A stretch of 64,000 bases of DNA. Source: Sedimentisphaerales bacterium (GTDB lineage: Bacteria; Planctomycetota; Phycisphaerae; Sedimentisphaerales; Anaerobacaceae). Both the position numbers and the translations under genes were made by a program. Shown here piece after piece: positions 21,452-40,871 of the stretch. The stretch spans positions 5,088,001 through 5,152,000 of the forward strand of contig OY970194.1 in NCBI GenBank assembly GCA_963708075.1, in the 5' to 3' direction. The notes below the pieces were generated by a model. It was not told where the DNA came from, did no database searches, and was given only the letters and a program-made list of their open reading frames with translations. Position 1 is the first letter of the stretch. The number at the start of each line of letters is the position of its first letter.

Positions 21452-22909
21452 TCAATGGTAACCGGTTTTCAACACAAGAATAGCGGCGTAGGCACCATCG
21501 TGGTCGAACGGTTGTGCGGAGGGGAGCGTGAGGTGCTCCTGTGTGAGCTGGAATTGGTCGTGGGCCTTGAGGAAGGCTTGGATTACGTCCTGGTTTTCGG
21601 TTTTTTGGATGCTGCAGGTGCTGTAGCAGATTCGGCCGGCGGGCTTGAGGAAGGTGGCGGCTCTTTCGAGGAGGGTCCGCTGGGTGGCGGCGAGGTCGTG
21701 GATCGTCTCGGGGCGGAGTCTGTAGCGGGCCTCGATTCGACGGGCGAGGACGCCGGTGTTGGAGCAGGGGACATCGAGCAGAATTGCGTCGAAGGGGCCC
21801 ACTGCGCCGTGTTCGAGTTGGGCGTAGGGGATGATGGTGATGCTCTTGAGGCCCAGGCGGGTGATGTTTTCCTGGACGCGCTCCAGCCGCTTGGGGTCGA
21901 TGTCGGTGGCGAGGATCGTTGCCGAGTCTTGCGTCAGCTCGGCAATCTGCGTGGTCTTGGTCCCCGGCGCCGAGCACATGTCGAGAATGGTCCATCCCGG
22001 CTGGGGTTGCAGCGCGCGAACAGCCTGCGAGGCCGAAAGGTCCTGCACGGTGAACAGGCCCTCGGAGAAGCCGGGGAGTTCCGTCACGGCGTGCGGGCCG
22101 GTGACACGAAGCATGTCTGATGTCACGTCCGCGATGGTAGGGTGGGCTATGCCCACCGATTCCCCTGGATACGAATGAGAGACGGTGGGCAGAGCCCACC
22201 CTACCGGCTCCGCCTTGACGCCGGCCTGCTCGAAGCGCGCCAGCAAATCCTGGGCGGTCGTTCGCAGGGGGTTGATGCGGATGTAGAGACTGGGTCTGCG
22301 GTTAGAGCCGAGACAGATTCGTCGAGTCTGATCGGGGCCGAACGTGTCGAGCCATTCATGCACGAGCCACGGCGGCAGCGAGAAACAGGTGCTCAGGTAC
22401 TCGGCAAAAGAGGCGGCGGGGTCGGGCAGGAAGTCCGTGTCGAATTCGCAGCCTGCGTCGGGCTCGCGGATGAGCGTGCGTCTGGAACCAGACGCGGCAA
22501 GCGGGGCCTCGCGATTGGCGATGTGCCGCACGATTTCGCGCAGGACGGCGTTGACGAATCCTGTCTGCTTTTTGCCGCCGGCCTTGCGGGCGTTGTTGAC
22601 CGCCTCATTGACGATGGAATAGACCGGCGTGGCGGGACTGTACGCAAGCTCATAGATCGCAACCCGAATGATGCTCAACAAGGCTGGAGCGATTCTGTCG
22701 GGCCGGCGGCCGGAGAAGCGGCCGATCACGGCGTCGATGGCGAGGAGGTTGCGGATCGTGCCGTAGACGAGATCGGTGGCCCGCTGTCGCTCGTCTGTCT
22801 GCGAGAGCAAAGGGTCCAAGATCGTCCCGGCGTAGTCGCGCGCGGGATCGAACCGCTGCAGCGTTTCCGCGGCCACCGCACGAGCGGATTTAAGCTCCCG
22901 AGCGGACAT
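21452..22909 (-). CDS. rsmB: 16S rRNA m5C967 methyltransferase RsmB/Sun
   Basis: NusB-like N-terminus (GFVNAVLR), DMCSAPGTKT, DVPCSNTG, YSTCS; def-fmt-rsmB order. Confidence 0.92.
   Translation of the reverse strand: MSARELKSARAVAAETLQRFDPARDYAGTILDPLLSQTDERQRATDLVYGTIRNLLAIDAVIGRFSGRRPDRIAPALLSIIRVAIYELAYSPATPVYSIVNEAVNNARKAGGKKQTGFVNAVLREIVRHIANREAPLAASGSRRTLIREPDAGCEFDTDFLPDPAASFAEYLSTCFSLPPWLVHEWLDTFGPDQTRRICLGSNRRPSLYIRINPLRTTAQDLLARFEQAGVKAEPVGWALPTVSHSYPGESVGIAHPTIADVTSDMLRVTGPHAVTELPGFSEGLFTVQDLSASQAVRALQPQPGWTILDMCSAPGTKTTQIAELTQDSATILATDIDPKRLERVQENITRLGLKSITIIPYAQLEHGAVGPFDAILLDVPCSNTGVLARRIEARYRLRPETIHDLAATQRTLLERAATFLKPAGRICYSTCSIQKTENQDVIQAFLKAHDQFQLTQEHLTLPSAQPFDHDGAYAAILVLKTGYH
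22137..22204. repeat. REP-doublet family C inserted in-frame in rsmB
   Basis: GTAGGGTGGGCTATGCCCACC...GGTGGGCAGAGCCCACCCTAC; same family is intergenic at 26729..26796. Confidence 0.85.
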
Positions 22910-24203: not shown

Positions 24204-24722
24204 TTACTTGCCTTCCTGTTCTTCGGCCAGTTTCTTGAGTTGCCGGCGGTGGGCGATCTTGGCCGCCGAGCCCATGCGATTGACGATCGTCATGCCCTCG
24301 ATGTGATCGTACTCGTGCTGCAGGCAGCGGGCGTACATGCCCTCGGCCTCCTCGGTGAACTGGTGCCCGTCGAGGTCGGTGGCCGTGACGGTCGCGTTCT
24401 TGTATCGCCGGATCTTTGTCCACACGCCCGGCACGGACAGGCAGCCTTCCTCCAGCTCCTCGAGCTCGCCGCTCGGCGTCACCGTCGGGTTGATGTAGAC
24501 TCGCACGTTCTCCCGCGACACGTCGAGCGACACGATGAACAATCGCAGCGGCACGCCCGCCTGCGGCGCCGCCAGCCCGATCCCCCGGTGCTCGATCATG
24601 ATGTCCGTCATCCGCTCCACGAGTCGGCGGATACTGTCATCGATCTTCTCCACCCGCTTGGCCGCCCCCCGCAACACCGGCGCCGGGTAGTACGTGATCT
24701 TGCATTTACTGACATCAATCAT
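24204..24722 (-). CDS. def: peptide deformylase
   Basis: GIGLAAPQAG, EGCLS, QHEYDHIEG. Confidence 0.96.
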   Translation of the reverse strand: MIDVSKCKITYYPAPVLRGAAKRVEKIDDSIRRLVERMTDIMIEHRGIGLAAPQAGVPLRLFIVSLDVSRENVRVYINPTVTPSGELEELEEGCLSVPGVWTKIRRYKNATVTATDLDGHQFTEEAEGMYARCLQHEYDHIEGMTIVNRMGSAAKIAHRRQLKKLAEEQEGK

Positions 24723-24761
24723 AACACGGTCTCGCAGTCTGAAATCCCTTTGGCTCCATTC

Positions 24762-25514
24762 TCATTGTTCGTCGAATTCGTCGCCGGAGAAGGTGTTGCC
24801 GAGATAACTCTTTCGGACGAGCTCGTCGCGGATGATGCTCGGCGGGCGGGCCGGAGGCGATCACCTTGCCGTGGTCGATGATGTAGGCCTTGTCCGCCAC
24901 TTCCAGCGTCCGCTCGACGTTGTGGTCGGTGATCAGGATGCTCACGCCGGAGGCGACCAGCCGGCGGATTTCCCGCTGCAGGTCCTCGACGGCGATCGGA
25001 TCGACGCCGCTGAACGGCTCATCGAGCAGGATCAGCGACGGGTCGGTCACCATCGCCCGGGCGATCTCCAGCTTGCGCCGCTCGCCGCCGGAGAGGAACC
25101 GGCCCTGGCTCTTGGCCACCTCGCGCAGGCCGAACTGCTCCATGAGCAGATCCGCCTTTCGCATCCGCTCGGACCGCGTCAGCGACATCGTTTCGAGGAT
25201 CGCCAGGAGGTTGTCGCGGACGCTGAGCCGCTGGAAGATGCTCGGCTCCTGGGAGAGATAGCCGATCCCCAGCCGTGCCCGCTTGATACATGGGCAGTCG
25301 GGTGATATCCCGGCCGTCGAAGACGACGCTGCCCTTGTCCGGCGTGATCATGCCCATGATCATGCGGAAGGTCGTCGTCTTGCCCGCCCCGTTGCGGCCG
25401 AGCAGACCGACGATGCTGCGCTGGTCGATCGTGACGCGAGACCTCGTTGACGACGGCCCGGCCGGAATAGCGCTTAATCAAATCATGCGTTTCAAGAAGG
25501 GTGATCCCTGCCAA
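24762..25514 (-). CDS. lptB: LPS export ABC ATPase; three apparent single-base insertions
   Basis: Stitched frames: LIKRYSGRAVVNEV / GLLGRNGAGKTTTFRM...RLPMY / GYLSQEPSIF...LSGGERRKLEIAR...LLDEPFSGVDP...ITDHNV / VRKSYLG. Confidence 0.88.
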
Positions 25515-26728: not shown

Positions 26729-26796
26729 GTAGTGGGGCTTGCCCCACCATGAACGACATGCCCGGCAGCAGAACGGTGGGGCAAGCCCCACCCTAC
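26729..26796. repeat. REP-doublet family C
   Basis: GTAGTGGGGCTTGCCCCACC...GGTGGGGCAAGCCCCACCCTAC. Confidence 0.8.
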
Positions 26797-28905: not shown

Positions 28906-28911
28906 GGGTTT

Positions 28912-29000
28912 TCAGGGTCCCCTTAGGTCTCTTGAGTCCTTTTGGTCCTTTCAAGGTCGTGCCATCCAAGGACCCAAGGGACCTAAAGGACCTAAGGGAC
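28912..29000. repeat. inverted arrays of 9-mer repeats (possible hairpin or terminator)
   Basis: (GGTCCCCTT/GGTCTCTTG/AGTCCTTTT)n facing (AAGGACCCA/AGGGACCTA/AAGGACCTA)n. Confidence 0.65.
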
Positions 29001-29009
29001 GGCTGACCC

Positions 29010-30515
29010 ATGTACAACCTCAGCGATACGATTGTTGCTGTCAGTTCGCCCAGTGGAGGCGTTCGATCCATCGTGCGCATCACCGGGCCGCAGACAATCT
29101 CCGCATGCGAGCAGCTTTTCGAGCCCTCGCTAAGTCCCCAAATCCGCGTTCCGCACTCCGCATTCCGCACTCGGATGCTCCTGTCCGGCTCCGTGCGGAT
29201 TCACGAGGGCCTGGCCATCGATGCGATGCTCTACCTGTTCTTCGCCCCGCACTCGTATACCGGCGAGCCTCTGGCGGAGATTCATCTCCACGCCGGCCAG
29301 GTCATCGTCGAGGCACTGGTCGAACGCCTGTTGGCGATGGGCCTGCGGCCGGCGGGGCCGGGGGAATTCACGGCCCGGGCGTACCTCAACGGCAAGCTCG
29401 ACCTCGCCCAGGCGGAGGCGGTCAACGAGATCATCAGCAGCTCAAACCGCCTCCAGTTGGATGCCGCCCAGAGGCTTTTGAGCGGACGGCTGACGACAGC
29501 AGCCGAAGAGATCCGCTCCGCACTGCTGGATGTTCTGAGCCTTATCGAAGCAGGCCTTGATTTCAGCGGAGAGGATATCGAGTTCATCAGCATCGAGCAG
29601 GCAGTGGAACGCCTCGGGAATATCCGGGGGAATCTCGAGCAGTTGCTCGCAGGCAGCATCCGGTATGAGACATTGATGGACCTGCCGGCCATAGGGATCG
29701 CCGGGGCGCCGAATGCGGGCAAGAGCAGCCTGCTCAACGCGCTGCTCGGCTGGGAACGCAGCATCGTCTCGGAGCAGGCCCGGACGACCCGGGACGTCCT
29801 CAGCGGCCTGCTGACCACGGACCGGTTTCAGTGCGTGCTCTTCGACTGCGCGGGCTTGATCCCTGTGGCACCCCCGCCCTCGGGGGTGAGCATTGAACCC
29901 AGCCGGGGGCGGCTGGGCTACATCGACGAGCTGGCGCAAGAAGCCGCCGTACAAGCTCTACAAAACTGTCACACAGTGTTGTTCTGCGTGGACCTGACCA
30001 AGCCGGATTGGAGTGACGACATCGCCGTCCGCACGTTGATCCGACCGAAAGACGTGATCTACATCGCCACAAAATCTGATCTGCTGCGATCGGATGAGTT
30101 GCCTGCGAGGCTGCACGCACTGACCAGCGCTTTCAATGCCGAGTTCCTGCCGGTATCGGCAAAGATGTCACGCGGCCTGGATGATCTGCTCGATTCCGTC
30201 GAGAGAAGCATCCTTGGGGAAATGGCGGGCACAGCCCACCCTACAGCCTCCAACGACGGGGTGCCATGCTTACGCTCGCGTAAGCCTGCGATAGATGCAG
30301 CCGGCGGCGCCGTGCTGCTCGCCCGGCACAAGCAGGCGATTGCGGAAGCGATGGACAACGTCCGCCAGGCAAGCGAGGAGGTTGCACGGGGCAACGACGA
30401 AGTCGCCGTGACGATGCTCCGCGCCGCCTGCCAAGCCATCTCCCAGATCGAGCAGCACCACATCGACGAGCAAGTCCTCGACCGCATCTTCAGCCGATTC
30501 TGCATCGGCAAATAG
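29010..30515 (+). CDS. mnmE: tRNA modification GTPase MnmE/TrmE
   Basis: APHSYTGE, GEFTARAYLNGKLDLAQAEAV, GAPNAGKSS, TTRD, DCAG, TKSD, FSRFCIGK. Confidence 0.95.
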   Translation: MYNLSDTIVAVSSPSGGVRSIVRITGPQTISACEQLFEPSLSPQIRVPHSAFRTRMLLSGSVRIHEGLAIDAMLYLFFAPHSYTGEPLAEIHLHAGQVIVEALVERLLAMGLRPAGPGEFTARAYLNGKLDLAQAEAVNEIISSSNRLQLDAAQRLLSGRLTTAAEEIRSALLDVLSLIEAGLDFSGEDIEFISIEQAVERLGNIRGNLEQLLAGSIRYETLMDLPAIGIAGAPNAGKSSLLNALLGWERSIVSEQARTTRDVLSGLLTTDRFQCVLFDCAGLIPVAPPPSGVSIEPSRGRLGYIDELAQEAAVQALQNCHTVLFCVDLTKPDWSDDIAVRTLIRPKDVIYIATKSDLLRSDELPARLHALTSAFNAEFLPVSAKMSRGLDDLLDSVERSILGEMAGTAHPTASNDGVPCLRSRKPAIDAAGGAVLLARHKQAIAEAMDNVRQASEEVARGNDEVAVTMLRAACQAISQIEQHHIDEQVLDRIFSRFCIGK

Positions 30516-30527
30516 CCGCCGGCAGAT

Positions 30528-31262
30528 TCACCCTGTCTTATTCTGATCCGCTTCCTTCGCTTGGGCTTGGAGGTACTCGGAGTGGACTTGGGCACGCCGC
30601 TCGGGGGGCCAGTCCCTGGGGAAATTCACACAGGCGAACTCGCCGAAGTGCTTGACGGCCGCATAGTCGTACGCCCGGGCTGCCTCGACCTCGTCGTCGA
30701 AATAGCCCAAGTGATGGAAGTGGCGCTTGACCGTGCATCCTGCCTTCCATTTGCCGGTCTTCTTCCAGTACGTGACGCCTTTGAAGCGGGAGAGGAAGTT
30801 GCGTCCCTTGGGCTTGTTGCGCTGGTTTTCCTCGCAGTTGCAGATACGCAGACTGGATCGGCGGGCATCCTGCTTGTTTCCGTCGACGTGGTCCACGAGC
30901 CTGTCCGCGGGCGCCTGCATGATCTCGCGGTGCATGGAAATCTGTCGGCCCTTTTCCCATCGGCAGGGATACCCATTCGTCATGCGCCAGTTGTACCGGC
31001 TGAGCCGCTCGTAGTCGGCGGCGTCCACCCAGGCGTAGCCGCCCCCGGCCAGGGGGATAAAGCGGACGGCGTCGCCCTCTGGCAATGCGGGCTTGCACCG
31101 ATAGTTCGGACAGGCCACCCCCGGCACGTCGTGCAGCACGCCCGGCCACTGGGGATGGTTCGCGCATCTCGGCACGATCGGCTCACCCCGCCGAAGCGAC
31201 CGATCCCAATGCTCCGGGTCACAGATCGAATACACGCAATTGTCACAGCACGGTCCAGACAT
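30528..31262 (-). CDS. Cys-rich-HNH-AP2 domain protein (copy 1)
   Basis: CDNC...CANHP...C; MHREIM...VDHVDGN; SRFKGV...W...LGYFDDEVEAARAYDYAA...GEFA.VNFP. Confidence 0.85.
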   Translation of the reverse strand: MSGPCCDNCVYSICDPEHWDRSLRRGEPIVPRCANHPQWPGVLHDVPGVACPNYRCKPALPEGDAVRFIPLAGGGYAWVDAADYERLSRYNWRMTNGYPCRWEKGRQISMHREIMQAPADRLVDHVDGNKQDARRSSLRICNCEENQRNKPKGRNFLSRFKGVTYWKKTGKWKAGCTVKRHFHHLGYFDDEVEAARAYDYAAVKHFGEFACVNFPRDWPPERRAQVHSEYLQAQAKEADQNKTG

Positions 31263-39977: not shown

Positions 39978-40871
39978 ATGGCCAAGCCAACCTGTCACAG
40001 TTGCGTGTACGCGTATTGGGATCGGAGTCTGTGGATGCGGAGCCTGGCGTCGGGCTTTCCGGCCCGGCCGTTCTGCGCCAACCACCCGGACTCGCCCGGC
40101 CGGGAGCGGGAAACCCCGTGCGGCGAGGTCTGCCGCAACTACCGCCTCCGGCCCAAGACCCCGGACCTCGCCGACGGCACGGTCAAGCGAATCCCCATCG
40201 CGGGCGGCCTGTACGCCTACGTCGATGCGGCCGATTATCCGGAGATCAGCCGCCACAAGTGGCGCTTAGTTGGCACCGGCTACGCCGGCCGCCACGAAAA
40301 AGGCAAGCTCATCTTCATGCATCGCGAGATCATGAAGCCCCCCAAGGGAAAGGTCGTGGACCATATCAGTGGCCACCGCATGGACAATACCCGCGCCAAC
40401 ATGCACATCTGCACGCCCGCGGAAAACAACCGCAATCGGGGCAAGCACCACGGCACCTCCTCGCAGTACCTCGGCGTGTTCTACCACAAACCGACACGGA
40501 AATGGCTCGCCTCGATCGGCATCGGCGGCAAACGCAGGAACATCGGCCGCTTCGACGACGAGGTCGAAGCCGCCCGCGCCTACGACCGCGCCGCCGTCGA
40601 GCAGTCAGGCGAGTTCGTCCGCCTGAACTTCCCCGACGAATGGCCGCCCGAACGCCGCCGCCAAGTCCACGCCGAAGCCCAAAGGACGGCGAAGGAGCAC
40701 AAGCCCGCCGAAAGAAAGAAAAGCAAGAGCCGTCCCGCCCGGACAAAGACAGCCAAACGCAAAAAGCCTCCTGTGTCAGTCCCGCGAAAGGCGGTAGGGG
40801 CGAATCATCATTCGCCCGCACATCGTCACCGCGCAGAGACACGGGGACGCAGAGCACCCAGACGTAAGTAG
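39978..40871 (+). CDS. Cys-rich-HNH-AP2 domain protein (copy 2)
   Basis: CHSC...CANHP...C; MHREIM...VDHISGHRMDNTRAN...ENNRN; GRFDDEVEAARAYDRAA; GGAAGGGAG RBS. Confidence 0.88.
   Translation: MAKPTCHSCVYAYWDRSLWMRSLASGFPARPFCANHPDSPGRERETPCGEVCRNYRLRPKTPDLADGTVKRIPIAGGLYAYVDAADYPEISRHKWRLVGTGYAGRHEKGKLIFMHREIMKPPKGKVVDHISGHRMDNTRANMHICTPAENNRNRGKHHGTSSQYLGVFYHKPTRKWLASIGIGGKRRNIGRFDDEVEAARAYDRAAVEQSGEFVRLNFPDEWPPERRRQVHAEAQRTAKEHKPAERKKSKSRPARTKTAKRKKPPVSVPRKAVGANHHSPAHRHRAETRGRRAPRRK

Follow-up and report, generated by a model that had tools for sequence, protein, structure and literature searches.

In-frame copies of four repeat families in an mnmE-type GTPase gene of Sedimentisphaerales, and the scattered distribution of one REP pair among its orthologs

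How do copies of four repeat families come to lie in frame in one conserved enzyme, and why does one of them recur at the same codon in scattered relatives? Both questions are raised by an mnmE-type GTPase gene at 29010-30515 (+ strand) of the window, i.e., the whole 64,000-nucleotide stretch of a Sedimentisphaerales genome (GCA_963708075.1, contig OY970194.1) that was analysed.

The mnmE-type gene and its four repeats

The gene encodes 501 aa, lies directly 3' of yidC and is the only full-length mnmE copy in the 7.5-Mb genome. Its product scored above the Pfam cut-offs of TrmE_N, MMR_HSR1 and MnmE_helical, and the best fold matches of its predicted model were solved MnmEs. Because the NCBIfam equivalog cut-offs for MnmE were missed (264.5 versus 380 bits and 243.1 versus 252.6 bits), we regard the gene as an mnmE-type ortholog of a diverged, order-wide subfamily rather than as a model-defined member. 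By sequence criteria it does not appear to be a pseudogene, a possibility that a sequence-only reading of the window had raised against itself: it is a single copy, comparison with six relatives gave a dN/dS of 0.15-0.18 for the part outside the inserts, indicating purifying selection, and the partner gene mnmG is open and intact (618 codons). The protein is presumably made and active.

The same reading had described all GTPase motifs and the terminal FCIGK as intact. The ORF does end in FCIGK and the G1, TTRD, DCAG and TKxD motifs are all found. The description is nevertheless only loosely correct: solved MnmEs have G immediately before TTRD, a position occupied by K or R in 108 of 120 homologs. 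The segment with the K-loop and switch II (29763-29948) is divergent order-wide, with this basic residue, Asp in place of the catalytic Glu and two Ala; the basic K-loop residue could alter potassium dependence. Beyond the gene, an ORF with weak HNH and AP2 matches (30528-31262, - strand) converges on mnmE, and a 136-base stretch of 76% similarity lies at 40540-40675. An ABC ATPase gene (24715-25514, - strand) appears broken over three frames, possibly by assembly errors.

Four repeats lie within the mnmE frame, where the sequence-only reading had placed them, and each is a copy of a multi-copy family of the genome. Element a (29141-29175, +; residues 44-54) is a heptamer tract of five 7-base units, the fifth of them degenerate. 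Element b (29864-29922, +; residues 286-304) is an inverted, REPIN-like REP pair whose two outer ends each carry a GT[AG]G foot; its terminal bases are likely T and A, and its two 8-bp hairpins (29865-29888 and 29898-29921, +) enclose a 9-base spacer (29889-29897, +) of a type seen only in mnmE copies. Element c (30224-30244, -) is a single GTAG REP arm with one stem mismatch, and element d (30259-30288, +) is a single arm of a palindrome family that lacks the GTAG foot and lies beside genes for REP-associated tyrosine transposases (RAYTs) in relatives. A search of the 7.5-Mb genome with our own patterns, plus blastn, returned 149 arrays of a, 24 left and 32 right arms of b, 32 copies of c and 244 of d. 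None of the four is present in short orthologs, and these are gapped at every insert site, which removes the objection that the inserts might align gap-free with repeat-free orthologs.

The b pair folded far better than expected (z -3.75; none of 200 shuffles was equally good), and the single arms of c and d folded alone no better than their shuffles (15/200 and 62/200); these two are classed as repeats because of family membership, not folding. With their GT[AG]G foot, short hairpin, multiple copies and frequent inverted pairs, b and c fit GTAG REPs/REPINs. Element d starts with GGGTGCC and lacks the foot, and so is not filed as a GTAG REP though REP-like in behaviour, and a is not a REP. The proposed colonisation needs revising for a, a heptamer tract that changes in steps of 21 bases by a process other than that of the hairpins. 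Intergenic relatives in the window had been reported for a, c and d; for c, however, the two closest (22137 and 22184) are in frame in a gene for an RsmB/F methyltransferase, and the intergenic copies are a variant. That gene (21452-22876, -) holds a complete in-frame c-family pair at 22137-22204, and a related GTAG REP at 26775-26796 lies just upstream of, or within, the uncertain N-terminus of yidC.

Insert sites across homologs

A total of 120 mnmE homologs, whose names suggest the order Sedimentisphaerales of the Planctomycetota, were compared. Of 117 complete rows, 68 had a site a of 18 aa and 15 one of 11 aa (83/117 in all), and site b measured 8 aa in 86 of the 120. The main hot spot is the linker that joins the G domain to the C-terminal helices (30201-30320, +); it holds c and d, and its length varied between 16 and 65 aa. 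Another site, between G2 and G3, was enlarged in 22 homologs, and a fifth, with a REP pair before G4, was found in a genome of another family. Just 3 of 116 homologs were outgroup-like in length at all four sites, and at site b different REP families begin at one codon. Of the 120 proteins, 107 were retrieved again by a query with an empty site, together with 13 further ones that were without exception empty at b; the query bias is therefore small.

The insert sites are thus hot spots throughout the genus. What held up of the earlier proposal is that repeats colonised, time and again and without loss of frame, a conserved single-copy gene with no sequence sign of being a pseudogene. The events themselves are old and genus-wide rather than four events of this genome, with a, c and d common to relatives and partly eroded. 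The gene amounts to a natural insertion scan of MnmE, in which four sites of the genus, plus one in another family, take up to ~70 extra residues. One of these sites lies in switch II, so "tolerant loops" describes only part of the picture: the insert positions are modelled as low-confidence coil (AlphaFold, pTM 0.50 with poor domain packing, used solely to tell local coil from secondary structure), but b is within switch II, which is tolerant just in this diverged lineage.

In the linker, the full c pair was found in four relatives (L002, L003, L046 and L070), its left arm alone in L061, and a c arm read in another frame in L005. Of the pair that is complete in the first four relatives, likely only the right arm remains here. 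Element d was intact in three other homologs of the 120, with remnants in others, and residues 409-436 of the linker are predicted as low-confidence coil. We conclude that c and d are older, partly eroded inserts in a linker modelled in this way.

Site a follows a different course. The tract here is 7 aa, or three units, longer than the short forms; no change in unit number smaller than three heptamers (21 bases) would preserve the frame. At least nine changes on the tree are required to account for the 15 short forms. The variable bases of the heptamers agreed at 0.72 within a tract versus 0.39 when a given unit was compared across species (33 rows, of which one, L039, is a stray outgroup), i.e., the flavour of the unit differs between species while the length is kept. 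This pattern likely reflects slippage and homogenisation, with a frame filter. In this genome the a unit also forms inverted arrays around a TIGR02436/PF05635 four-helix-bundle gene (G000:C1:6174215-6174523), and other members of that gene family carry other units. We found no publication on this link by title or abstract start, in a search that excluded most subscription papers. The gap between yidC and mnmE contains, at 28906-29005, a fifth repeat family, with units of 9-10 bases arranged as inverted arrays, and similar units flank a PF05635-like match at G000:C1:6460740. A squalene-hopene cyclase-like gene (G000:C1:5948676-5950664) contains four in-frame heptamer tracts.

At site b the element measures 59 bases and the net gain is 42 bases (+14 aa), so ~17 host bases were overwritten; the insert is a replacement as well as the addition that had been described. 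It lies between Leu283 and Asp306, after the G3 motif and before the residue that aligns with the catalytic Glu of solved MnmEs. This residue, Asp306 (29925-29927, +), is invariant in all 120 homologs, and the corresponding E282D change of E. coli MnmE left 100% activity (PMC3695501, Table 4). Ala309 aligns with E. coli G285, a position that is also Ala in 8 of 11 outgroups, and Ala stands in this lineage at the positions aligned with both G285 and R288, as in most outgroups; the same table gives 0% modification for G285A and 11% for R288A. Because both of these sensitive positions are Ala in most outgroups too, switch II appears to have been remodelled order-wide before b arrived, and this may be why b was tolerated.

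As to a repeat-driven source of new protein sequence, the sequence is indeed there, but no evidence of a function of the peptides was found, and across the genome b is read in all six frames, consistent with tolerated passengers. The insert peptides are probably just that. Contigs of four DNA runs of one study gave no joint that skips an insert, the best run being possibly the source sample. Among 20 listed runs containing the sequence, none was of RNA. One empty clade (L005, L050, L071 and L072) encodes V-E-P at site b; its bases match the end of the b spacer and the start of the right arm at 5 of 6 positions, and the spacer may have been captured from there, or the match may be due to chance.

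Scatter of the b pair in mnmE and in other genes

Seventeen of the 120 homologs carry b at the identical codon and on the same strand, 16 of them with a site length of 22 aa and a nearly constant peptide, and the carriers have common ends and a common spacer type. On a tree built from columns outside the inserts, a single clade of carriers was rejected by 638 log units (p-AU 2e-39; 12 changes; 14 carriers of 45 rows), the group having been defined by the insert after the first tree was seen. With all 131 rows and weak nodes freely resolved, at least nine changes of b were still needed, and carriers often have empty sisters, at 99-100% support. Frameshifts in the mnmE of L040 (G013) and L034 (G021) are probably sequencing errors, as these assemblies have many such breaks.

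Among nine DNA loci (eight distinct), identity within the insert was 0.94, versus 0.77 for the whole gene and 0.59 at four-fold sites. Most of this identity is arm sequence, and the arms are uniform across the genus, with 190 exact matches in 17 of 24 genomes (150 of the 190 among the matches listed). The spacer is for this reason the informative part; it and two upstream bases are all that is specific to the locus. Pairs with other spacers are present in 17 of the 24 genus genomes, whereas the mnmE type had two matches there, both in mnmE, and one in the genome collection, in the mnmE of G013. All eight distinct carriers with DNA have this one type and keep the terminal T and A at synonymous positions. 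The flanks of the G013 insert match its empty sisters on both sides, to about eight codons upstream and three downstream, and no clear co-conversion of mnmE flanks was seen beyond one or two codons. A 31-residue query against 1.84 billion representatives gave four uninformative matches, and no viral contig held an exact match to the b left arm. Copying of the spacer from its flank, as a complement of upstream codons, was rejected: there was no covariation in eight carriers, and 14 genome copies gave no excess of matches (60 observed versus 64.8 under the null). The movement of a short patch between orthologs is, we infer, the best account of the shared spacer, and b likely moved sideways in this form between mnmE copies of different species.

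Does b behave in this way in other genes? An epimerase gene had full or decayed b in 5 of 21 rows and, in addition, one half copy, again beside empty sisters; half or decayed copies are those of L189, L172 and possibly L175. The distant genomes G004 and G020 match there at 15/15 bases beyond the insert, versus 11/15 with their own empty sisters, although 11 of the 15 patch-like windows in this gene lie away from the insert, so that background homoplasy or general recombination is not negligible. In EndoV, 3 of 15 rows carry b, and G004 shares the spacer and four adjoining codons with the distant G000, not with its sister G014. A HisA-like gene has b in 3 of 21 rows, scattered, at the same site and with the same net length but with unrelated 10-base spacers. 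DapF carries it in 1 of 21 (one of 22 loci, lacking site coverage, was left out of the count), and a serpin gene in 1 of 17; G013 has another pair at that codon of the serpin gene. Two other genes thus show mosaics like that of mnmE, and a third shows the same site with different spacers. Net gain was below element length at 6 of 6 loci, by 1-15 bases in the epimerase, serpin, DapF, HisA-like and EndoV genes.

The main competing account is independent insertion at a hot spot from each genome's own intergenic pool, with target preference and a frame filter giving the common length and position. The three scattered HisA-like carriers, with their unrelated spacers, fit this account; different REP families also start at one codon in the serpin gene as at mnmE site b, and REPs occur at the same site of recB in two Xanthomonas species (PMC3733652). 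It fails to provide the single spacer type of all eight distinct mnmE carriers, without a match outside mnmE in the genomes searched and with T and A kept synonymously, now that flank templating has dropped out as a source, and we consider it unlikely for mnmE.

An improbable reading, in our view, is that b was inserted once, long ago, stayed uniform through repair from family copies and was then lost many times, with empty alleles restored by recombination. Erosion is real, as the decayed epimerase copies and the c and d remnants in the linker indicate, and L190 looks like an empty patch from another clade. Deletion alone, however, cannot restore an 8-residue site b because b overwrote host bases, and 86 of 120 homologs have exactly 8 residues there, with clade-specific signatures and residues in common with outgroups. 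The present tree suggests an empty site at all deep nodes, and the ancient insertion would need many more events, lateral patches still among them.

Selection of the inserts for a function, as a peptide or as an mRNA hairpin tuning, for example, the GTPase cycle or translation, seems very improbable. It could draw on the near-constant b peptide of 16 homologs, the scarcity of homologs that are outgroup-like at four sites (3/116) and the lack of depletion of b in genes. Synonymous positions of the insert are conserved as strongly as the rest, though, and protein selection is therefore not the cause of its conservation; carriers and non-carriers are sisters, and the same sites are filled by different families and in different frames (c in another frame in G005). 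The scatter can hardly be an artefact of chimeric metagenome assemblies or of an erroneous tree: most carriers are metagenome proteins on single contigs and the G013 copy is frameshifted downstream, but both G013 flanks agree with one empty clade, the AU margin is 638 log units, query bias is small, and the scatter recurs in other genes of genome-level assemblies.

RAYT links, a proposed mechanism and known systems

In relatives, b, c and d are linked to three different RAYTs. Of eight loci fetched there, seven have b arms on the flanks of a RAYT; c flanks one in G005, G014 and G004, and d lies on both sides of a RAYT-family gene in G020 and G022, the former above and the latter below the NF047646 cut-off. 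In this genome the b-linked RAYT has no close homolog (best 24-33% identity), and the scanned flanks of its 13 PF01797 matches held no b, c or d arms. The b RAYT was absent between clustered b copies in 8 of 8 regions, and was later found by a family search. Loss of mismatch repair as the cause was rejected, since MutS and MutL are both present; their presence argues against ordinary recombination at 25% divergence, but is no proof of a special route.

Genome-wide, the families differ in how far they enter genes. The copies lying 40 codons or more inside an ORF were 41 of 149 for a, 13 of 24 (left) and 14 of 32 (right) for the arms of b, 9 of 32 for c and 6 of 244 for d, with 0.62 expected at random (own gene caller, 5,423 genes; three of the c host ORFs look spurious). 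Element d is strongly excluded from genes, and b hardly at all (13/24 versus 0.62, p 0.27); Pfam recognised all 20 host ORFs chosen for checking. Measured foot to foot, just 1 of 14 in-gene b pairs had a length divisible by 3. With the terminal T and A added, 10 of 14 did, versus 0 of 8 intergenic pairs (Fisher p 0.0017), a test that overstates the difference because six of the eight are one 50-base form.

Published work on RAYTs suggests how such inserts could arise. In vitro, TnpA-REP makes cuts some way from a resident repeat and recombines single strands (PMC3333891), and RAYTs are described as cutting single-stranded DNA near REPs and joining strands, with integration near resident repeats and carriage of flanks proposed (PMC3333891, PMC8266576). 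Cognate RAYTs likely wrote b, c and d into mnmE, overwriting a few host bases, and selection likely retained frame-preserving outcomes alone. Cleavage and joining near resident repeats would also lead to the stacking in the linker, the exchange of repeats at site b and the overwriting. Taken together, we find it probable that repeat families settled at hot spots through RAYT overwriting, with slippage at a, a frame filter and lateral spread of b in short patches. A bolder version, which we hold only tentatively, is that REP pairs of this sediment genus home, i.e., that from a conserved gene that already has the pair a patch of ~60-90 bases moves into an empty ortholog between species 20-30% diverged, taking at most a few flank codons on one side, with a RAYT acting in trans.

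Colonisation of genes in frame by REPs has been published. Di Nocera et al. 2013 (PMC3733652) describe in-frame REP singles and dimers of 20-30 aa in conserved genes, sometimes two per gene, with intragenic REPs in RNA-modifying enzymes and a peak in a species of the PVC superphylum. The GTAG/CGTC REPs of that study resemble those here in being in frame in conserved genes, down to the same-site recB case in two species; four of its supplements have no entry for GTPase, trmE, mnmE or thdF, and its section on genome distribution is without stacking of four families, overwriting of host bases or scattered sharing of a spacer. We found no paper, by title or abstract start and with most subscription papers outside the search, on scattered sharing of one REP allele among orthologs. 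It is this scattered b allele that is the less ordinary, homing-like lead.

Other systems share single features. The "double foot" REPs of TnpA-REP subclass 2.4 (Quentin et al. 2018, PMC6006769) start with GT[AG]G at one end, carry the complementary sequence at the opposite end, and insert in frame; in the parts of that study considered here the in-frame copies are mainly inside the transposase gene, whereas b is a two-hairpin pair in host genes that shares their double-foot layout. Rickettsia palindromic elements likewise add in-frame peptides to unrelated conserved proteins, but they measure ~150 bp (PMC10969869), and the elements here, at 21-59 bp and with an identifiable RAYT for three families, are not RPEs. 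The E. coli REPtron/BIME work (PMC3333891, PMC8266576), with single-strand cleavage near REPs, strand transfer and flank carriage, offers a ready mechanism for hot spots and short patches, although it concerns gammaproteobacterial enzymes in vitro and intergenic repeats, and its passages on these steps do not describe transfer between orthologs of different species.

The spread of REPs is still poorly understood (PMC8266576). Coding copies provide alignable empty and filled sites in many species, which intergenic copies rarely do, and those analysed here show overwriting of 1-17 host bases, reuse of codons, mosaic sharing of spacers and flanks, and candidate enzymes. If homing is real, REPINs would parallel homing introns and inteins on a miniature scale and without a gene of their own, and would leave a lasting peptide behind, even in the switch II region of a GTPase.
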